Of a DNA stretch of 32,306 nt, positions 1 through 32,306 are shown piece by piece. Position 1 is the stretch's first letter. Every line of letters starts with the position of its first letter. The notes under the pieces are model-generated. The model saw only the letters and a list, made by a program, of their open reading frames with translations. It ran no database searches and was not told the origin of the DNA. This DNA is from a virus (Duplodnaviria > Heunggongvirae > Uroviricota > Caudoviricetes). A program made the position numbers and the translations under genes. Where the stretch lies: positions 1 to 32,306 of the IMG/VR virus record IMGVR_UViG_2802429237_000004, one strand, 5' to 3'.

Positions 1-216
1 TTAGTAAGCAAATTGTTCCTGCATACCTTTTGGATGAGGCGGTGCTGCACTGATTTTTTGTGGACGGCATACTGATCGCACAAAAGTCTCATGCGTCACG
101 AAGGTATGCCCGCACTCAATGTTAGTGCACTGGTTGTAGCGTTCCTTGGTTTCATTGGAAACCTGGAAGCTGCTTCGGGTATGTGCCGCCTGCCCACATA
201 TAGGACAATTCATCAT
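1..216 (-). CDS. ogr: Late-gene transcription activator Ogr/B (C4 zinc finger)
   Basis: 71-aa ORF with CPxC...C..C spacing (CPICGQ...CTNIECGH) typical of P2 Ogr / 186 B; lies directly after tail gene D as in P2; stop codon at window positions 1-3. Confidence 0.85.
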   Translation of the reverse strand: MMNCPICGQAAHTRSSFQVSNETKERYNQCTNIECGHTFVTHETFVRSVCRPQKISAAPPHPKGMQEQFAY

Positions 217-283
217 AAAAATCAGCCCTCATTATTAACCAGTTCGCAATAATAATACATTATTGTTCGCAATTTGGAACTAA

Positions 284-1866: not shown

Positions 1867-4800
1867 GCGTCGTATCCCCCCTGATCGCTGTAGTTACTCC
1901 TGGCTTTTGCCTTCAGCCTGCGTTCACGTTCATCAAGCTGGCGTGCCACCTCCCGCGCAATATCCTGCGCACTTTGTCCTGGCTGCGTCTGAATGATGAT
2001 CTGCGTCGGTGCCTCAATCCGTTGAACGAGCGGCACAGTGGCTGCGCGACTCACAATTGCTTCTCCACCTTTCGCGGGAAGTGCCAAAGGGTGCAACGGT
2101 GGAAGCTCTGCTGGCGCGGCAGCAACGCCCATCATTCCGGCAACAACGGCAGCCAGTGCAGCTGTATTTCTCCGGCTGGTCACATTTGCCGGGCCGTTAA
2201 CAATTTCCGGCCCGTTTTCACCGACGATGCCAAACTGCCCGCGCGGGATATACCCGCCGCTGTCATACATCCCCGCAAAGCCATATCCCCATGATGGAAA
2301 ACCACCCGATGGCATCATCACTTTACCGTCTGCATTCACCGTCGCAGGTTGCTGACGCGTCACGCTTTCCGGCAGTTTTGCCTTTGCGGCCTCTTTACTG
2401 ACAATGCCGAGCTTCTCCAGCAACCAGGAAACGCCGGATTTCAGGGAGTCCAGCGGATGCATGACCATATTCAGCCCTTCCGCCAGTGCCTCCCCGAATC
2501 GCCGCCCCATTGCCGCTGCGCTCTGCAGTTCGGCAGAGGTCGACTTAACGGGCGTCAGCAGATCAGTAAACCAGCCCCACAGCGCCTGCACTTTGTCGCC
2601 AATCCACTGGAACACGGGCTTAAGCGGTTCGAACGCTGCACTGATGGGACCTGCCGCCGCTTTGAATCCTTCCACCACGCCACCGAGAAATGCGGTGATG
2701 GGTTGCCAGTATTTCCAGACAACCAGCGCCACGCCCGCCAGTGCAGTAACCACAAGACCTATCGGACTGAGCAGAGCACCTAACAGACCAGATATGGCAT
2801 ACAGGGCAACGCGCAGCATCGCCAGCGGGCCGGATGCGAGCACACGCAGCACCGCGCCTGCGGCAGCCAGCCCACCGCGTAGTGCTGCCAGTGGATTCAT
2901 AAACATCACAGCAACAGCACGTAAACCGGATAATCCAGAACGCAAAAGTGCAACCGGCGCACCTGCTACAGTTTTCAGGACATTCCCCATCAGTGATACC
3001 GTGCGACGCAAAGACGACAACGGAGCAGTAAGTAAACCCGCTGCGTTGCCCGATGAAGCAAGCCCGCGTCGCAGCAGTGCCAGTGGTGCGCCAGCCAGCC
3101 AGGACAACGCGCTGCTGGTTCGAGTTACTGCTGCCGTAACGGAAGGTAACGTTTTGATACCCAGCACAGAGAATCCCAGACGGATGACTGCCAGCGGCCC
3201 CAGCACTGCAGCCAGCGCCACCGCTAAGGTGCCGAGGCCTACGGTAACCGCAGCCACCACAGCCGCTACTTTCATCAGTGTGCCTGTCAGTTCCGGGTTA
3301 GCTTCCACCCAGCGGCGCAACGCCCCCATGATGCTTTTCACCGTGTACAGAATATCCATCAGCGGCTGGCGCAGCGTTTCGCCCAGGCTGCTGAAGGTGT
3401 TCTGCGCTCCGGTTTTGACCAGCAACCACTGAGCAGAAAGTGAGTCTTTGTTGATGTCGGATTCTTTCTGCATGGAACCGAGCGCATCATTGCCCGCTGT
3501 CAGTTTTAGCTGGCGCTGCAGTTCCGGAAGGTTGTTTGCCAGTTTCGCCGCGTCATCACCAAACTCTTTACCAAACAACATGGTCATGGCAGACAGACGC
3601 TTGTCCTGCGGCAGTGCGTTCACCTTCTCCAGCACACGCTGGATAGTTCCCATCGCATCCTTCGTCATCTGCTTTTCAATCACTTCAGGATTGAGTTTCA
3701 GCAGATTCATCCCTTCAAAGAAACTCTTGCTTTGCATGGTGGCAATGGACAATTCACGCACCATCGCGTTTGCTGCACTGGCTGCAACCTCCGGCGCAGC
3801 GCCCAGTGTCAGAAAGGTGGAACCCAGTGCCGCCGCTTTACGATAATCCAGACGGTCAGCCACACCGCCCAGACGTTGCATCACATCAATGATGTCCGCC
3901 CCTTTCGACATGGCGTTATCATCCAGATAGTTCAGCGCATCACCGAGCTGTTCAATATTGCGGGTAGGGATTTTGTAGAGCTGGGCGATTTTCCCCAGAC
4001 TTTCTGACAGTTCATCCGCTGGCAGCTCAAAGGCTGTTGCCGCCTTTGCTGCCGTGCTGGCGAAGGCCAGCAGATCACGTTTCTGGTCTTCCCAGCTGTC
4101 GTCAGGGTTTGCGACGTTCATGCGCGCCCCACCTTCAACCAGTGCAGCGAAGTCCACCGCACCGTTTTCCATCGGCAGCTGTTCGCTGGCAGCCTTGATG
4201 GCATCCTGCATTTCATAAAAACGTGCAGTGCGGTTGCCATTATCGTCACGCAGACCATTGACCTGCTTTGCCACACCTTTCATGGCATCTTCCATGCTGG
4301 TATAGCTTTTTACTGCCGCCATCACTGGCGCACCCATTGCCAGCCCTGCAGCCGTGGTAGTGGCTCCGGCTCCTGCGATGCGATCGCGCACTTCAAGCCG
4401 TCTTGAGTATTGTTCTCTGGCAGCGTTCATCCGTGCCTGTTGTTCACCCAGACGTTTAAGTGCTTTTTGCTGGCCCTCCAGTGCCTGCCTTGTTTCTTCA
4501 GCATTTTTCTTAAGTTCTCGCTGGGCACTACTGAGTTGTCTGGTATCAATCCCTGATTCTTTAAGTGCCTGACGTTGTCTCTGGACCGCCCCCAACAAGC
4601 CGTTATAGGTCTGCTGAAGTTCCTGTACTCGTGTTTTGGCCTGACTGAATAACTTTGCCTGCGCGGCGGTTGGCCTGTTAGTGGCAGCAAATTGTGTGGC
4701 GAGTTTTGCCGCCTCTTCGCGGGCTGCGTTCAGGTTGTTGGCTGTTATGGCTAGTTGCGAGCGCGTCTTGCGAAATTCATCAATTCTGCCAGCCTGCTTA

Positions 4801-21314: not shown

Positions 21315-22346
21315 CTATCTTTTTATTGCTCGTAGAGTAGTCATTAAATTCTCCCCATAAGGGGTTAAGGTCCAATATGTACCCTTGTCTTTTACACTTC
21401 TATTTCTTTCACTTTGGACCATAAGCCCTAGAGCTCGGAATTGTACTTTGATTGTCTGGACATCAGAACTATCCATACGAATAAACTTTATATGCATATT
21501 TTTAAAATCATCATCCGACCTCAACCCTGCCTCAACAATTTCATAGATGGAAGCGTTGATCAACGTTTTTAATCTATCATCGGAAATTTCATCAATCATA
21601 TAGGGAGAAATATAGGAAAATAATGAATTCCAACTTATCTGAGAGGTCCACTCATACTCTGAACCATCAGATGTCCACTCTGTAGGAGAAGCATGGAAGC
21701 TACATTTAAAAGTAAATAAATCGTCTCCTTGTGCAAGATCCTCAGTCCCTTTCGGTGCAGTTGTGGTATTCTTACTTAATTGATTTTCAAGTTCCTCAAT
21801 AGTCCTCTTCAACCCAAGAATTTCTTTTGCTGAACTCTCACTAGTAACTAAATCTCCACGAACCCATCCTACAGCAGGATGATCTTTAATAAGCCTAATC
21901 AAACTTCTACTGACTTGGCTTCCTAAGTCCGCAGGAGTTTCCCAGAATCGGCAAAGTTTCTTTTTAACAAGCTCTTCAAATGCTTCTAGCTTTTCTTTTC
22001 CTTGAGGAGATGGCTCACATCGCTGGGATGGTAAAAGACCTTTATTTTTGTGCAAAAAACCAATTACTGGCTTTCCTGATTCAACAGCGTAACGATACTC
22101 CATCTCAGTATAACTTATCCCATCAGGCCCTAAGGAACCGTAACGCCCCGCAAGGATTACAATGTAATAATCACTATCATCAATTATTTTCTTTATTAAG
22201 CTCCATTGATCACTATTAGTAGCAGGAAACAACTCCATACCAGCAGGTATACAATCCAGCTCTAAAAGAGCCTGCATGACCTCTTGACGTTCAGTTTCCA
22301 GGTCTGAGTATGTTGAACTAACAAAAACTTGATACCGCTTGTCCAA
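21315..22346 (-). CDS. AT-rich cargo gene: protein with DUF4062-like N-terminal module and unknown C-terminal domain (candidate defence/abortive-infection effector)
   Basis: 343-aa ORF; N-terminus YQVFVSSTYSDLETERQEVMQALLELDCIPAGMELFPA...DYYIVILAGRYGS matches my recollection of the DUF4062 signature; in-frame start is TTG preceded by GAGGGA at good spacing (no upstream in-frame ATG; the next ATG would cut the conserved motif); flanked by terminator hairpins. Confidence 0.6.
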   Translation of the reverse strand: MDKRYQVFVSSTYSDLETERQEVMQALLELDCIPAGMELFPATNSDQWSLIKKIIDDSDYYIVILAGRYGSLGPDGISYTEMEYRYAVESGKPVIGFLHKNKGLLPSQRCEPSPQGKEKLEAFEELVKKKLCRFWETPADLGSQVSRSLIRLIKDHPAVGWVRGDLVTSESSAKEILGLKRTIEELENQLSKNTTTAPKGTEDLAQGDDLFTFKCSFHASPTEWTSDGSEYEWTSQISWNSLFSYISPYMIDEISDDRLKTLINASIYEIVEAGLRSDDDFKNMHIKFIRMDSSDVQTIKVQFRALGLMVQSERNRSVKDKGTYWTLTPYGENLMTTLRAIKR

Positions 22347-22637: not shown

Positions 22638-22871
22638 TTAATGCAGCCAGCTGTCGTCTTCCCACACCTTCTGCATAATTTTCATCACTTGTTTTCTTTC
22701 TTCGTCCAGTTGCAGTCCGGTTAGTTCCACACCGTTAGAGCTACCTTTGCGAATGCGAATTACCGTTTTGGGATACAGGGGGCGCAGATTGCGGTAAAGC
22801 TCGGATTCAAGGGCGTCCAGGGTAGACTGGCTAATCTTCTGCTCTTTATCGATCATTATTTCAATGCGCAT
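22638..22871 (-). CDS. DinI-family protein (second gene of SOS operon)
   Basis: Start set at the internal MRIEIMIDKEQ, preceded by GAGGTG Shine-Dalgarno; 77 aa; N-terminus and C-terminal ...VWEDDSWLH resemble E. coli DinI and the C-terminal half of 186 Tum as I recall them. Confidence 0.6.
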   Translation of the reverse strand: MRIEIMIDKEQKISQSTLDALESELYRNLRPLYPKTVIRIRKGSSNGVELTGLQLDEERKQVMKIMQKVWEDDSWLH

Positions 22872-22881
22872 AAAAGTCACC

Positions 22882-23070
22882 TCAGCTGATGACATCCATT
22901 GAGCGGTTGTATTCGTGGGTTCTGATTTTTGCCATGAGTTCATCAGTCAATTCAGAAACCCACTGCAGAGCCAGCCCCTTCTCTTCATCACTACACTCAC
23001 TAGCCGCTACAAGCTTAAGAAAAAAATCAATGCGCTGGAGCTTCAAAGACTCCAAAAAATAGTCCTGCAT
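22882..23070 (-). CDS. Small SOS-operon protein (possibly the N-terminal part of a Tum-like antirepressor)
   Basis: Start set at the internal MQDYFLESL, which has a perfect AGGAGGAAAG Shine-Dalgarno directly upstream and lies 30-60 nt downstream of LexA boxes; the ORF-track start at 23172 would place the LexA boxes inside the coding sequence. Confidence 0.5.
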   Translation of the reverse strand: MQDYFLESLKLQRIDFFLKLVAASECSDEEKGLALQWVSELTDELMAKIRTHEYNRSMDVIS

Positions 23071-23098
23071 CTTTCCTCCTATGACACCACACGCAACA

Positions 23099-23129
23099 CT
23101 GTATGTATAACCACTGTTTATATTTACAG
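23099..23129. promoter_or_regulatory. Tandem LexA (SOS) boxes at the promoter of the tum/dinI-like operon
   Basis: Perfect CTG-N10-CAG with AT-rich core (ctgtttatatttacag, about 23114-23129) abutting an imperfect copy (ctgtatgtataaccac, about 23099-23114); LexA consensus is CTGTATATATATACAG. Confidence 0.6.
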
Positions 23130-28217: not shown

Positions 28218-28369
28218 TTTCTCGTGGTCAATTCAGACAGCAATTCATCTTGTGAATGACATGGATGCCAGCGTTTACCATCCTCTCCCATGATCCAGCC
28301 GTGACCGTAGTGCATTGCCGGGCTTTGTTTTACCAGCAGCGATGCAAATGATGGTTCTTTCGTCAGCAT
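28073..28369 (-). CDS. Hypothetical early protein, possibly frameshifted relative to the downstream ORF
   Basis: Start set at MLTKEPSF (GAGGTG Shine-Dalgarno); the C-terminal 45 or so codons run through the next ORF in another frame and look non-protein-like. Confidence 0.3.
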   Translation of the reverse strand: MLTKEPSFASLLVKQSPAMHYGHGWIMGEDGKRWHPCHSQDELLSELTTRKWRKSKCMRQKVKWFISFVTEGRVIQYLKMICSVAIRRCRAMVATFSR

Positions 28370-28376
28370 AAGCACC

Positions 28377-28886
28377 TCACAGCAAACCGAATGAAGCACC
28401 GAGGCCAGTCACAGTATCAACTGCACTCGCCATCGCAGGGTTAGCCTGTAAACGGGCCTGCAATGAAACAGCCGCCAGCGCCATCAGTCGTGTTACAGAA
28501 TTAATGCTGCTGATGGCATCACGACGACCGGCACTGGTTTTTACATCGCCAGATACCGCACCTGCAGCAACACGCCCGATCTCTGCGGTTGCACTCATGA
28601 CGTAATGTGGCAGTTTCTCTTTTGCCACCTCATTAATCGGTACACATGGCAGACAATGAATCTGTGCCAGAAAACCATCTACCAGCGTTGAATCTTCAGT
28701 CAGATCGGTAAGCAGCCAGATTTCTGGTGCGGTTAATAAATGAGGTTGAGCTGGGTTCAGCTTGTTCCGCAGAATCTGCACATTCATGCCAGCACGTTCT
28801 GCCAGTTGCACCAGGTTGTGGCGCAATGCGAATGCACGACAGGCTTCATCAAAATGTGGATGTTTGGAAACTTGGTAATCAAACAT
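28377..28886 (-). CDS. cII: CII-like lysogeny establishment regulator (186 CII family)
   Basis: Start set at [24 protein letters not shown] (169 aa), which closely matches my recollection of coliphage 186 CII; second gene after apl. Confidence 0.8.
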
Positions 28887-28918
28887 GGTCGATACCCCTG
28901 ATGTATCCCAAAATGGAA

Positions 28919-29140
28919 CTAGTTGAATACAACATTGCAATCAGTAAGTGCATCAACGGTAAGAGCAGCAAGGTTGATCATCACCTTTTCTCTTTTCTTG
29001 TCTTTCCGAAGACGATGCCGAGGGATGCGACCGTCAGCCAGCATATCGTTAATTGTATCGATTGAAAGACCAGTAAGTTCGCTATAACGCTCAATTGTGA
29101 CATGTGGCGTATTCAGAGTTATTGAAATGTTAGGGGTCAT
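28919..29140 (-). CDS. apl: Apl/Cox-like excisionase and lytic-switch regulator
   Basis: 73-aa HTH protein, first gene of the lytic operon, divergent from the CI-like repressor gene as in 186. Confidence 0.7.
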
Positions 29141-29181
29141 GATGCAACATCTCCTATTGGCTTGTGGTGAGCCGGTTTGAA

Positions 29182-29201
29182 TTGTGACCAGAACTTCACA
29201 A
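29182..29201. promoter_or_regulatory. Candidate operator palindrome in the apl/cI switch region
   Basis: TTGTGA-N8-TCACAA perfect inverted repeat in the 88-nt gap between the divergent apl and cI-like genes. Confidence 0.35.
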
Positions 29202-29228
29202 AACGGAGATTAGGATCTCATAACGGTT

Positions 29229-30167
29229 ATGTCAACTCAAAAAAACACATTTCGCCATGTTAGCGAGAGTCTAAAAACTTCAATAATGCAAAACCGTGGG
29301 GGACAGAAAGTAATTGAGCGTATACTTGTTGCGTATGGTTTTACTTCGCGGCAAGCATTTTGCAATCATCTGGGTATCTCACAAAGCACGATGGCCAACA
29401 GGTATGCTCGTGACACATTTCCTGCTGACTGGGTGATAATTTGCAGTATAGAGACCGGCGCATCTATCGACTGGTTGGCATCGGGAATCAGCTGTGAATC
29501 ATCCTCAGTTTTATTAAATGATGAACGTTTAGCCCATACCAAATCTGATGACCTGGATAGAACTAATTCAATAGCCCAAAAGTTCCCAATCGAGACCAGC
29601 ATAAATCCTAATAAAGGAGGGAAGGCGGCAATTGATCGCTTAGTCGCAGCCTACGGCTTTAGCACCCGACAAGCCCTAGCAAACCATTTGCAGGTTTCAA
29701 AAAGCACTGTAGCAAACAGGTACTTACGAGACACGTTTCCTAGCGACTGGATCATTCAATGCGCTCTTGAAACAGGAACTTCATTACTCTGGCTCACAAA
29801 CGGCAATGGCCCCAAATTTATCGATAATTCCAGCTCTGTAGCCCAACTTAAACACCAAACAATCATTGACGGTAAATTACATGATGAAGGCTACTTAGCA
29901 TTTGACAAGACGCTTATACCTTCCGGATTGAAAAAACCTATTGGAGTTACCGCAGAAGGAAAAACCTTTATTGCAGATACAGAATATGATGATGTTTCAG
30001 ATGGTAGTTGGTTGATTGAGATTGAAGGTAAAGTAAGTTTAAGAAAATTAACAAGAATTCCAGTTGGAAAAGTAAAAATCACATCAGATACAACTGATTT
30101 TGTTTGTAAGCTTGAAGACATTACAACCATCGCAAAATGTTGTTGCGTTTTTTCAAAGGAAATTTAA
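29229..30167 (+). CDS. cI: CI-like immunity repressor with two tandem 186 CI-type N-terminal HTH domains
   Basis: 312-aa ORF; two consecutive segments (ERILVAYGFTSRQAFCNHLGISQSTMANRYARDTFPADWVIICSIETGASIDWLASG and DRLVAAYGFSTRQALANHLQVSKSTVANRYLRDTFPSDWIIQCALETGTSLLWLTNG) each resemble the 186 CI N-terminal DNA-binding domain; AT-rich C-terminal third; start codon choice uncertain (weak Shine-Dalgarno). Confidence 0.7.
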   Translation: MSTQKNTFRHVSESLKTSIMQNRGGQKVIERILVAYGFTSRQAFCNHLGISQSTMANRYARDTFPADWVIICSIETGASIDWLASGISCESSSVLLNDERLAHTKSDDLDRTNSIAQKFPIETSINPNKGGKAAIDRLVAAYGFSTRQALANHLQVSKSTVANRYLRDTFPSDWIIQCALETGTSLLWLTNGNGPKFIDNSSSVAQLKHQTIIDGKLHDEGYLAFDKTLIPSGLKKPIGVTAEGKTFIADTEYDDVSDGSWLIEIEGKVSLRKLTRIPVGKVKITSDTTDFVCKLEDITTIAKCCCVFSKEI

Positions 30168-30177
30168 AGGAACATAC

Positions 30178-31167
30178 ATGAATTCTGAAAATAAAAAAAA
30201 TGAAAACAACGATTATGTTGAAAAAGTTAATTGCGAATGGAAAGATCTTTATAATATTTTAAATGAAAATCTGCATAAATTTAATGAAAATGAACGCGCC
30301 TACTTAGTCGACTTATTAAAAAAAGGTGAACTTGATAAATTCAGAGAATACTACTGGAAATTAGCCCAGCAAGAAAAAATGAACTACAGCGATAAAGCTG
30401 GAGATATTTTTATTAATGAAAACAATAAGATAGATGAATTAATAAAAGAACAAAAACATCTTCGAGAGATAATGCGATCATATACCAAACGTTTATTGGA
30501 GGCTGAAGAGTCCAAAGCTACGTTACATCTTCGGAATGAGAATTTAGAAAAACTAAATTCTGAAAAAGAAGCAATTATTGAGCAAGCCGTATCTAGAATA
30601 AAGCAACTTGAAGCATCTAACAGCGAATTACAAAGCCGAGTACAACAAGAAAGGATTGATGAGAAAATACCAGGATATGTCGATAGCGTTAAAAGTGAAC
30701 TAAGTTCAGATGACTTATATTTCATTAAAATGTCGCAAGTATGGGCTTTTACTGGCTGCATTTTCGGGCTACTTGCTGTATGTGCATCATTTTATACACT
30801 CTACGCCACAATTGACTTCAACAATGTTAAAGGCTTTGAGCTATTTTATTTTTTCACACGTGGTTTAATTGGTATTTCCATTCTTTCTTGGCTAGCATAT
30901 ATTTGCCTTGGCAACTCTAAAAAATATACCCATGAATCAATTTTGAGAAAAGATAGAAGACATGCACTAATGTTTGGGCAAGTATTCCTGCAAATTTATG
31001 GTTCCACGTCAACAAAAGAAGATGCTGTGTTAGTCTTTAAAGACTGGAATATGTCTGGTAACTCTGCATTTTCTGACAAAACAGAACTCCCTCCGGGAAT
31101 CCAATCTTTATGGGATTCAACCAAAGAAAAACTAAAGCCAAGTACCGCTGAAAAAGCACAGGAGTGA
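30178..31167 (+). CDS. AT-rich cargo gene: coiled-coil protein with two C-terminal TM helices
   Basis: Start set at the ATG with AAGGA Shine-Dalgarno (MNSENKKNENN...); about 330 aa; a roughly 200-aa Glu/Lys/Leu/Asn-rich heptad region, then two hydrophobic helices (VWAFTGCIFGLLAVCASFYTLYATI, LFYFFTRGLIGISILSWLAYICLG) and a 65-aa tail; very AT-rich; followed by its own terminator. Confidence 0.6.
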   Translation: MNSENKKNENNDYVEKVNCEWKDLYNILNENLHKFNENERAYLVDLLKKGELDKFREYYWKLAQQEKMNYSDKAGDIFINENNKIDELIKEQKHLREIMRSYTKRLLEAEESKATLHLRNENLEKLNSEKEAIIEQAVSRIKQLEASNSELQSRVQQERIDEKIPGYVDSVKSELSSDDLYFIKMSQVWAFTGCIFGLLAVCASFYTLYATIDFNNVKGFELFYFFTRGLIGISILSWLAYICLGNSKKYTHESILRKDRRHALMFGQVFLQIYGSTSTKEDAVLVFKDWNMSGNSAFSDKTELPPGIQSLWDSTKEKLKPSTAEKAQE

Positions 31168-31229
31168 GGCCAATGTTTATTTCACCCTAAACATACATTG
31201 ATAACTGTTTAAATATACAGTTAAATTTA

Positions 31230-31253
31230 GCCCTCTGATATGAGGGCTTTTTT
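31230..31253 (+). terminator. Rho-independent terminator between the cargo gene and int
   Basis: gccctc-tgatat-gagggc stem followed by TTTTTT that runs straight into the int ATG. Confidence 0.6.
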
Positions 31254-32306
31254 ATGGCAGTACGAAAACTCACCACAGGAAAATGGCTTTGCGAATGTTA
31301 CCCTGCCGGACGTAGTGGACGTCGTGTGCGTAAACAATTCGCCACCAAAGGCGAAGCTCTGGCTTTTGAGCGTCACACGATGGAAGAAACCGAAGCAAAA
31401 CCCTGGCTGGGTGAATCAGTGGATCGTCGAACACTGAAAGACGTGGTTGAGATATGGTTCAAACTACATGGTAAATCTCTGACAGCTGGGCAGCATGTCT
31501 ATGACAAATTGCTGTTGATGGTTGACGCTCTGGGAAATCCCATTGCAACCGATCTCACCTCTAAAATGTTTGCCCACTATCGAGATAAACGCCTGACAGG
31601 AGAGATCTACTTCAGCGAAAAATGGAAGAAAGGAGCAAGCCCGGTCACCATTAACCTGGAACAAAGCTATCTTAGTAGTGTTTTTAGCGAACTATCCCGC
31701 CTGGGCGAATGGTCGTATCCGAACCCACTGGAGAACATGCGAAAATTCACCATCGCAGAAAAAGAGATGGCATGGCTTACCCATGAGCAGATTGTTGAAT
31801 TACTGGCTGATTGCAAACGTCAGGACCCAATTCTGGCACTGGTAGTTAAGATATGCTTAAGCACAGGCGCACGCTGGCGTGAAGCTGTAAATCTTACCCG
31901 CTCACAGGTGACCAAATACCGAATTACCTTTGTAAGAACGAAGGGGAAGAAAAACAGAAGCATCCCTATCAGTAAAGAACTTTACGAAGAGATCATGGCG
32001 CTTGATGGGTTCAATTTCTTCACAGACTGCTATTTTCAATTTTTATCTGTGATGGGAAAAACGTCTATCGTGCTCCCTCGCGGTCAACTGACACACGTTC
32101 TGCGCCATACGTTTGCGGCGCATTTCATGATGTCGGGTGGAAATATCCTTGCTTTGCAAAAAATCCTCGGACATCACGACATAAAAATGACTATGCGTTA
32201 CGCACATCTGGCACCGGATCATCTGGAAACGGCGCTCCGTTTCAATCCTCTGGCAACGCTGCCAAGTGGCGACAAAGTGGCGGCAGCGGTTGGCATTACC
32301 CCGTAA
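31254..32306 (+). CDS. int: Tyrosine integrase (P2/186 family)
   Basis: 350-aa ORF; N-terminus MAVRKLTTGKWLCECYPAGRSGRRVRKQFATKGEALAFE and C-terminal catalytic region (..HVLRHTFAAH...HHDIKMTMRYAHL) typical of P2-family integrases; stop codon is the last three bases of the window. Confidence 0.9.
   Translation: MAVRKLTTGKWLCECYPAGRSGRRVRKQFATKGEALAFERHTMEETEAKPWLGESVDRRTLKDVVEIWFKLHGKSLTAGQHVYDKLLLMVDALGNPIATDLTSKMFAHYRDKRLTGEIYFSEKWKKGASPVTINLEQSYLSSVFSELSRLGEWSYPNPLENMRKFTIAEKEMAWLTHEQIVELLADCKRQDPILALVVKICLSTGARWREAVNLTRSQVTKYRITFVRTKGKKNRSIPISKELYEEIMALDGFNFFTDCYFQFLSVMGKTSIVLPRGQLTHVLRHTFAAHFMMSGGNILALQKILGHHDIKMTMRYAHLAPDHLETALRFNPLATLPSGDKVAAAVGITP

Follow-up and report, generated by a model that had tools for sequence, protein, structure and literature searches.

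A 186-type CI repressor with two predicted DNA-binding domains of apparently different ancestry in an Escherichia coli prophage

Results

Architecture of the repressor

The DNA analyzed here, called the window, comprises positions 1 to 32,306 of the viral record IMGVR_UViG_2802429237_000004. It is nearly the whole of a P2/186-like (Peduoviridae) Escherichia coli prophage, a 99%-identical copy of which lies between ybjL and rcdA in strain AR_452. The subject of this report is its repressor gene cI, which occupies the slot known from coliphage 186: apl lies opposite, followed by cII and fil, and a cargo gene and the integrase gene int are found downstream of cI (Table 1). For the same gene in the 99%-identical prophage the NCBI product name is "phage repressor protein CI". 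Pfam searches matched PF07022 (Phage_CI_repr) to two stretches of the protein (E 5.3e-55), of which the second covers residues 133-196, and PF16452 (Phage_CI_C) to residues 207-305 (E 1.5e-30). An earlier note on this DNA had taken the gene for an immunity repressor much larger than 186 CI, and both points are borne out: the protein has 312 amino acids (aa) compared to 192 aa for 186 CI, that is about 120 aa more, and judged from its domains it is a lysogeny-maintaining 186-type CI repressor of this prophage.

A canonical 186-type CI of about 190-210 aa has one N-terminal DNA-binding domain (NTD) per chain, whereas the chain studied here has two. These domains, termed N1 and N2, can be aligned without gaps and share 41 of 73 residues (56%, E 4e-33; about 58% in the domain comparison), in agreement with the roughly 60% estimated before for two homologous helix-turn-helix (HTH) copies of the 186 CI type. 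The structure of 186 CI (2fjr), however, could be aligned only to residues 134-310 (E 1.8e-32), that is to the second copy and the C-terminal domain (CTD). On their own, N2 and the CTD therefore constitute a complete CI of the canonical type, to which residues 1 to about 128 have been added.

In an AlphaFold2 (AF2) model N1 (residues 25-85) and N2 (131-191) are each predicted to fold into a five-helix bundle, an extra helix (13-21) precedes N1, linker residues 90-128 have a pLDDT below 50 and the CTD (204-309) is beta-rich. The CTD model superimposes on the 14-mer-forming CTD of 186 CI (2fkd_A) with a TM score of 0.93 and an rmsd of 1.6 Å. An S24 peptidase domain (PF00717) gave no Pfam match in CI at E <= 0.1, and the resemblance of the CTD to LexA is a distant one of the fold only (Foldseek E 3.6e-7, 9-15% identity). 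The earlier note had considered that a single polypeptide could place N1 and N2 on the two half-sites of an operator and act as a monomer, as two HTH domains per chain would allow. We regard this as very unlikely and also as unnecessary. A pseudo-dimeric tandem-HTH protein has a fixed geometry and no separate oligomerization domain; the linker of about 40 residues is predicted to be disordered, hence would impose no fixed geometry, and the CTD is retained, matches the 14-mer-forming domain and evolves with a dN/dS of 0.20.

Among the double-domain CIs the linker varies in length and sequence, and its last 14 residues or so, KFPIETSINPNKGG in the window, match the former N-terminus of the N2-type single-domain CI, MSTSKYPNEIKINPNQGG. 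In the same alignment both NTDs are much better conserved than the CTD. Simple immunity diversification would predict the opposite of this combination of a rapidly diverging CTD and conserved DNA-binding heads. The CTD of the lineage studied here ends in an unusual Cys-Cys-Cys motif (IAKCCCVFS), which it has in common with the single-domain CI P0026.

The possibility raised earlier that the true start lies downstream of the first copy was not confirmed. There is an in-frame TAG 15 nt 5' of the ATG at 29229, ATGTCAAC (M-S-T) is kept in single- and double-domain relatives, and from residue 55 to the second copy, linker included, the sequence reads without any in-frame ATG, GTG or TTG. Since in addition N1 has a dN/dS of only 0.055, the ATG at 29229 is sound as the start. 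In the GenBank entry MK416009.1 (L063, positions 1-936) CI is annotated with 257 aa and a start within N1, although the full 311-aa frame is intact. As the tblastn match extends over the full length, the short coding sequence looks like a gene-calling choice. Annotations shortened in this manner mask the two-domain architecture in the databases.

Origin of the two domains

N1 shares 88% identity and the same recognition helix, SQSTMANRYARD, with the single NTD of P0098 (208 aa, Salmonella), whereas N2 reaches 84% identity to the NTDs of the single-domain CIs P0075, P0055 and P0051. P0026 (199 aa) is 76% identical to our protein across N2 and the CTD. In a domain tree the N2 domains intermix with the NTDs of single-domain CIs (mean identity 74%), and most N1 domains form a group of their own. 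By these comparisons N1 and N2 belong to different NTD lineages, both of which are also found alone in single-domain CIs.

The DNA is mosaic in a corresponding way. In BLASTN comparisons window positions 28300-29241 correspond to 3065-4014 and positions 29579-32264 to 4012-6666 of L006, the phage encoding P0026, so that N2, the CTD, the cargo gene and the integrase gene form one collinear block with 78% identity to this single-domain phage. The inserted module between these two stretches is absent from L006. Homology to L004, the N1-type phage encoding P0098, is limited to 29195-29464 and reaches from 34 nt 5' of the ATG to the end of N1. The extra DNA thus begins about 34 nt upstream of the ATG, which means that N1 came with its own DNA next to the lytic promoter pR. 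For the remaining 38 linker codons no source was detected: when region 29470-29640 was compared with the relatives by BLASTN and TBLASTN, only the last 14 residues were matched, and these are the old N-terminus of the N2-type CI.

The earlier description of the two copies as tandemly duplicated is therefore not supported, because they are closest to different lineages, share only about 58% with each other, and the N1 module is inserted. As far as can be read from the alignments, the gene is a fusion of two NTD lineages that goes back to an insertion into a single-domain phage and to no recent in-place duplication. The repressor would then be a normal 186-type CI with an additional HTH domain at the N-terminal end, apparently acquired from a relative of different specificity together with the promoter-proximal DNA of this relative. 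Alternatively, an old tandem duplication in place could have given rise to both copies, and the N1-like and N2-like single-domain CIs would have lost one of them. The copies are adjacent and homologous, and a Shewanella algae homologue with 70%-identical copies demonstrates that in-place duplication does occur in the CI family. Nevertheless, we consider this course of events improbable. The differences between N1-type and N2-type single-domain phages concern apl and the switch DNA and not cI alone, the double-domain genes share an N2-type backbone to the left and right of an insert with sharp boundaries, and at least four N1 types preceding one constant N2 type in double-domain genes are better explained by repeated module exchange.

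Composition and selection

N1, the linker, N2 and the CTD have a GC content of 0.45, 0.37, 0.48 and 0.34, respectively (GC3 of the CTD 0.23), compared to 0.33 in the neighbouring cargo gene and 0.51 in the whole window. The AT-rich CTD thus indeed resembles the cargo gene, as had been noticed, but the conclusion that the protein might be a mosaic that arrived with the cargo was not upheld. The CTD is canonical and part of the block which is shared with the single-domain phage, and CTDs are more AT-rich than NTDs in single-domain relatives too (CTD GC content 0.40 in L006 and L004, 0.31-0.34 in all double-domain genes examined). Therefore the piece that was added is N1 and not the CTD.

Compared with the double-domain locus L008, dN/dS amounts to 0.055 for N1, 0.075 for N2, 0.20 for the CTD and 0.60 for the linker. 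Both N1 and N2 are under strong purifying selection. The dS value of codons 1-23 is only 0.165 against about 1.17 in N1. When six double-domain genes were compared, the synonymous-codon identity was 0.35-0.5 along most of the gene, with peaks of 0.95-0.98 at codons 1-12 (29229-29264) and of 0.78-0.88 at codons 113-123 (29565-29597); the codons ACA TTT CGC CAT of the N-terminal arm are invariant in all six. These near-frozen synonymous sites point to DNA elements embedded in the gene.

Switch promoters and candidate operators

The predicted pR has its -35 hexamer at the reverse complement of 29230-29235, overlapping the ATG of cI, and its -10 hexamer at the reverse complement of 29207-29212. 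This overlap accounts for the conservation of ATGTCAAC. TGTCAAC is kept in all relatives, which have better -10 hexamers (TAGTAT in L006, TATTCT in L004 and L008). A strict sigma-70 scan returned no promoter and passed over the predicted pR, which has three of six matches in the -10 hexamer. In the predicted pR spacer, directly 5' of the ATG of cI, there is a perfect 11-bp palindrome, ATAACGGTTAT (29220-29230), which is also present in L010 and not in L008, L011 or L004.

Around pR the block TTCACAnnnCGGAGAATAGGATC (29195-29218) is kept in all seven loci with the N1 type of our gene, which has glutamine at position 2 of the recognition helix. It overlaps the candidate N1-type operator (Table 1). 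The counterpart in L004, ATTCAC-ACAACG-GAGAAT, has the same half-sites as the pB site of 186, ATTCAC-GAATT-GAGAAT. The imperfect palindrome at 29252-29266 falls into the block of near-total synonymous conservation.

A second type of candidate operator is related to GTTCCC-N4-GGGAAC. In at least nine N2-type single-domain phages this motif flanks pR, with GTCCCC-AAAT-GGGAAC at -45 and with GTACCC-AAAT-GAGATC at +14. Of these two copies, the one at -45 has given way to the N1-type block in the double-domain genes, and the one at +14 lies about 340 bp further from pR; it is found at +353 or +299, and this with three N1 types. In the window it is represented by the site at 29582-29597, which matches the motif at 10 of 12 positions and coincides with the second peak of synonymous conservation. 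Sites with at least 10 of 12 matches occur three times in the window, compared to 1.4 expected from shuffled sequences. The conserved sequence at 28904-28919 may, by analogy to 186, equally be the -10 region of the CII-activated promoter pE. The site at 265-280 has the position of the CI-repressed pB operators in 186; other double-domain phages have CTTCGC-AATG-GAGAAC and GTTTGC-AAAA-TGGAAT, 22 bp apart, upstream of ogr.

In the comparison of window positions 1-281 with positions 2476-2756 of L002 (AR_452), ogr and its upstream region could not be aligned by BLASTN, although the cI genes are 99.6% identical. The candidate CI sites near ogr in the window are GTTCCA-AATT-GCGAAC and a repeated TTGCGAAC half-site; the pair of sites just described for the other double-domain phages is that of AR_452, 4LV2017 and ST11-OXA245phi3.1. 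With a generic palindrome finder the FL and FR sites known from 186 were retrieved in that phage, but nothing clear emerged at the matching positions of the window, and an exhaustive dyad search over the switch, pB and FR regions yielded AT-rich noise only.

Table 1. Position of the repressor domains, candidate regulatory elements and neighbouring genes in the window
Feature	Position	Strand	Basis or remark
cI gene, 312 aa (N-terminal arm, N1, linker, N2, CTD)	29229..30167	+	Open reading frame (ORF), Pfam, NCBI name
N-terminal arm, residues 1-23	29229..29297	+	Overlaps pR -35 and candidate upstream operator block
N1, first Phage_CI_repr HTH, residues 24-87; recognition helix SQSTMANRYAR	29298..29489	+	Pfam, alignment, AF2 helices
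Inter-domain linker, residues 88-128, hypervariable, predicted disordered	29490..29612	+	pLDDT, dN/dS, alignment
N2, second Phage_CI_repr HTH, residues 129-197; helix SKSTVANRYLR; canonical NTD position	29613..29819	+	Pfam, 2fjr
CTD (Phage_CI_C), AT-rich	29820..30164	+	PF16452; model compared with 2fkd_A; GC 0.34
Inserted module, about 339 nt, absent from single-domain relative L006	29242..29578	+	BLASTN; ahead of codon 4
Stretch homologous to N1-type phage L004: pR-proximal DNA and N1 coding sequence	29195..29464	+	BLASTN, 76% over 270 nt
Predicted lytic promoter pR, TTGACA-17 nt-TAATCT	29207..29235	-	Conserved DNA; predicted
Candidate lysogenic promoter pL, TTGAAA-17 nt-CAACAT, facing pR	29122..29150	+	Conserved block and 186 pL layout; weak, predicted
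Candidate N1-type operator CTTCAC-AAAACG-GAGATT, over pR -10 and start site	29194..29211	.	Conserved block
Imperfect palindrome TCGCCA-TGT-TAGCGA, codons 8-13, upstream of pR -35; candidate second pR-flanking operator	29252..29266	.	Synonymous conservation
Candidate N2-type operator GTTCCC-AATC-GAGACC, in linker coding sequence just upstream of N2	29582..29597	.	10/12 motif match; synonymous conservation
TATCCC-AAAA-TGGAAC at apl/cII junction, position of 186 FR operator	28904..28919	.	Conserved in all relatives
GTTCGC-AATT-TGGAAC, 49-64 nt upstream of ogr/B late-activator gene	265..280	.	One of three motif sites
apl, Cox-like excisionase and lytic repressor, 73 aa	28919..29140	-	phrog_575 E 9.6e-32, synteny; transcribed away from cI
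cII, CP76 family activator of lysogeny	28377..28886	-	PF06892 E 4.5e-42; NCBI start site
SOS operon, likely inducer of CI repressor	22638..23129	-	LexA box and two ORFs

Covariation of the N1 type with the DNA at pR

Position 2 of the recognition helix is glutamine in the main N1 clade and lysine in N2. In other double-domain genes the N1 helix has serine (as in 186 CI), alanine or lysine at this position, and N2 keeps its lysine with the exception of L068, which has asparagine. The Kosakonia locus L066 is instructive in this respect. It agrees with the window in its N2-type apl and in the left half of the switch, but the recognition helix of its N1 is like that of 186 CI (SSSTLANRYTRD). Its pR-proximal DNA is different and resembles that of 186, with ATTCAC-GTTAGA-GAGAAT, CTCAC-AAAAT-GTGAG and CTCAC-ATTTT-GGGAG. 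The second of these palindromes takes up the 17-nt spacer of TTGACA-17-TAAATT, which is where the central operator is located in the pR of 186. The site upstream of N2 is kept, as GTCCCC-AAAT-GAGATC at +299 in L066 and as GAACCC-TATT-GGGAAC at +299 in L067, which has a third N1 type. RE2010 (Fels-2-like), from which an N1-type pB region had been expected, turned out to have an N2-like NTD with a long linker and was dropped as a source of such a region.

The DNA next to pR thus switches along with N1, whereas the site preceding N2 is retained, and this correlation is the main support for a division of labour between the two domains. The main rival explanation is that both domains read essentially the same half-site, so that doubling the heads would add avidity, wrapping and looping without a second specificity. 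The two recognition helices are similar (SQSTMANRYAR and SKSTVANRYLR), the candidate half-sites of both domains and the 186 operators all resemble xTTCxC/GxGAAx, and L004, an N1-type single-domain phage, also has "N2-like" 6-4-6 sites at the FR and FL positions. We rate this gain in valency as rather unlikely, although it has to be taken seriously. Helix position 2 is fixed differently in the main N1 clade and in N2, the DNA at pR switches with the N1 type in front of a constant N2 site, and each domain is nearest to a different single-domain lineage with different switch DNA.

Distribution of double-domain repressors

Two NTDs were found in 50 of the best 120 cluster representatives. These proteins have 290-330 aa, and their sources are E. 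coli, Klebsiella, Citrobacter, Enterobacter, Salmonella, Kosakonia and Edwardsiella. A CI with two NTDs is also encoded by induced Klebsiella phages, 4LV2017 among them, and the cI allele of the window is present in 24 of 5426 complete E. coli genomes. When 1.84 billion representative proteins were searched, 181 matched the NTD at E <= 0.001, and among the 150 matches listed of these 181 about two dozen had two matching stretches. Pfam analysis of six matches with 285-327 aa returned PF07022 twice along with PF16452 in every case. Long proteins with 4-9 "stretches" in this search were discarded as spurious (SpaA repeats or generic HTH_3 arrays).

The double-domain CIs fall into at least three clades, one of which contains our protein. 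In a second clade, P0130-P0182 from Hafnia, Citrobacter, Edwardsiella and Enterobacter, the copies are 29-53% identical. The 70%-identical copies of the Shewanella algae proteins P0245 and P0287, which also have PF07022 twice and PF16452, go back to a more recent in-place duplication. As the double-domain clades are separate, doubling of the NTD has happened more than once. In Dryocola sp. BD586 (L011, 2501-3434) the double-domain cI is interrupted in the CTD, and the 229-aa product corresponds to P0034; this is probably a decaying prophage.

A full-text literature search retrieved no description of a two-domain 186-type CI, which is not proof of absence. A review of the regulatory genes of P2-like phages mentions only longer couplers and longer CTDs (PMC3448106).

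The SOS operon and variable loci of the prophage

The SOS operon starts with a perfect LexA box, CTGTAAATATAAACAG (23114-23129), followed by an ORF of 62 aa (22882-23070) and a 77-aa homologue of DinI and the C-terminal part of Tum (22638-22871). The latter is 41% identical to residues 71-145 of 186 Tum (E 1e-19) and matches PF06183 (DinI, E 6.6e-23). BLASTP revealed no similarity between the N-terminal half of Tum and the 62-aa ORF. A split tum is also present in Fels-2 and PSP3, with the upstream half as an antirepressor (PMC3121763). A prophage with such a LexA-controlled split tum operon could use N1 for another purpose than operator binding, namely to tune induction by serving as a decoy or docking site, with the SOS antirepressor or the repressor of a competitor as possible partners; the predicted flexible tether holding N1 away from the core would suit this role. 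We give little credence to this idea. The recognition helix of N1 is the same as in single-domain CIs, which must bind DNA with it, N1 arrived with pR-proximal DNA that varies by N1 type, and the dN/dS of N1 is as low as that of N2.

The cargo gene (30178-31167, plus strand) is AT-rich and encodes 329 aa, coiled-coil in the N-terminal half and hydrophobic in the C-terminal one. The protein belongs with phrog_2628, a group of unknown function, by its match and has only sub-threshold Pfam hits; a comparison of this gene and CI with the PADLOC defence library gave no match. Homologues occupy the same slot in L006, L008 and L066. In this slot L067 has an AAA_15/SMC-like ATPase and a DUF4276 protein, vB_EcoM-813R9 a 558-aa "chromosome segregation ATPase" and L004 two small genes. 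The slot between cI and int has the appearance of a hotspot for variable cargo. Another variable locus, which may have to do with defence, is found between the portal gene and the SOS operon: here the window has a 343-aa ORF (21315-22346, minus strand) with an N-terminal DUF4062 (E 6.9e-29), and the counterpart in AR_452, whose prophage is otherwise 95-99% identical, is a TIGR02391 (Hypoth_Ymh) protein.

Discussion

We think it probable that the CI of this prophage is a complete 186-type repressor, made up of N2 and the CTD, to which N1 has been added along with a new linker portion of about 30 residues, and that N1 reads pR and N2 the legacy sites on a multimer held together by the CTD. By analogy to 186 CI the protein would multimerize through the CTD, with dimers assembling into a 14-mer wheel; the wheel model of 186 CI has been described (PMC3675496). 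Pairs of N2, being in the canonical position, would bind legacy operators of the GTTCCC-N4-GGGAAC type, namely the site at 29582-29597, which the insertion would have shifted from beside pR to a distance of about 350 bp, and the site upstream of ogr, and possibly also the FR-position site at 28904-28919. Pairs of N1 on their flexible tethers would bind the elements flanking pR (29194-29211 and 29229-29266) and thereby repress the lytic promoter. Induction would probably proceed via the SOS-controlled antirepressor of the split tum operon (22638-23129) and not by self-cleavage.

Several points weigh against this interpretation. The candidate operators are imperfect repeats with modest statistics and have to be considered putative, and scans of the window with 186 consensus operators (ATTCAC-N5-GTGAAT; TTCAC-N6-GAGAA) found no enrichment over shuffled sequences. 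Conservation of the pR-proximal block is ambiguous because it also contains the -10 hexamer and a Shine-Dalgarno-like sequence. Likewise, positions 29582-29597 also encode a conserved K-F-P-I-E peptide, so that the conservation of this site could have another cause. As the half-sites assigned to N1 and N2 are alike (CTTCAC/GAGAAT and GTTCCC/GGGAAC), the specificities may not differ. The AF2 monomer model has a low pTM of 0.37 and is uninformative on the arrangement of the domains. Finally, the direction of evolution could have been the opposite one, with single-domain genes derived from double-domain genes by deletion.

A more far-reaching version, which we put forward only tentatively, is that the double-domain CI is a naturally bi-specific repressor made by a plug-in mechanism, in which a cassette of pR operators and matching NTD from a heteroimmune phage is placed ahead of a constant core of operator, NTD and wheel-forming CTD. 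If this were true, 28 DNA-binding heads with two specificities would sit on one wheel, the new heads governing the swapped lytic promoter and the old heads still governing legacy sites, namely the promoter of the late-gene activator and a distal looping site. A lysogen of this kind would have simultaneous immunity to two immunity classes, and phages could switch their immunity and yet retain genome-wide control by the repressor.

The CI of 186 is among the best-studied alternatives to the lambda switch, and in the model of wheel, wrapping and looping each subunit is assumed to have one DNA-binding domain. A CI with two domains of two ancestries that occurs naturally, is widespread and is maintained by selection provides a ready-made test case for the wheel model. 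It raises the questions of how many heads per wheel are usable, whether tethered heads can get to distal sites, and how operators and domains are jointly exchanged when immunity changes. Should the specificities of N1 and N2 differ, such prophages would exclude two classes of superinfecting phages, which would bear on the competition between prophages in clinical lineages of E. coli and Klebsiella, and the protein would be a natural template for engineered dual-input repressors. With the same specificity it would simply be a CI of higher valency and of modest interest.

Compared with coliphage 186, the CI described here has the same pair of Pfam domains and the same CTD fold (2fjr, 2fkd; TM 0.93), and its gene has the same slot between the divergent apl, with promoters predicted to lie face to face, and int; cII and fil, a LexA-controlled tum-like operon and a late-activator gene with candidate CI sites upstream are present as well. 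It differs from 186 by two NTDs per chain instead of one, the NTDs being only about 40-45% identical to that of 186, by an apl-cI spacer of 88 nt instead of 129 nt, and by the cargo gene between cI and int. Among the single-domain relatives, L006 with P0026 (N2-type) shares apl, the left half of the switch, a homologue of the cargo gene and int, whereas L004 with P0098 (N1-type) shares the pR-proximal block and the N-terminal arm. In the N2-type single-domain phages GTNCCC-AAAT-GNGANC flanks pR at -45 and +14, and in the double-domain genes the +14 copy is 339 bp further off. The group of Fels-2, PSP3 and SopE-phi has 186-type CIs with longer inter-domain couplers, described with a single NTD (PMC3448106); the split of tum into antirepressor and DinI homologue in Fels-2 and PSP3 has the same layout as in the window (PMC3121763). 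Finally, an engineered lambda-186 hybrid repressor (7jvt) carries, according to its deposited title, a foreign DNA-binding domain on the 186 CTD. It matches our CTD in sequence and fold; there the NTD was replaced artificially, whereas here a second NTD was added by nature.

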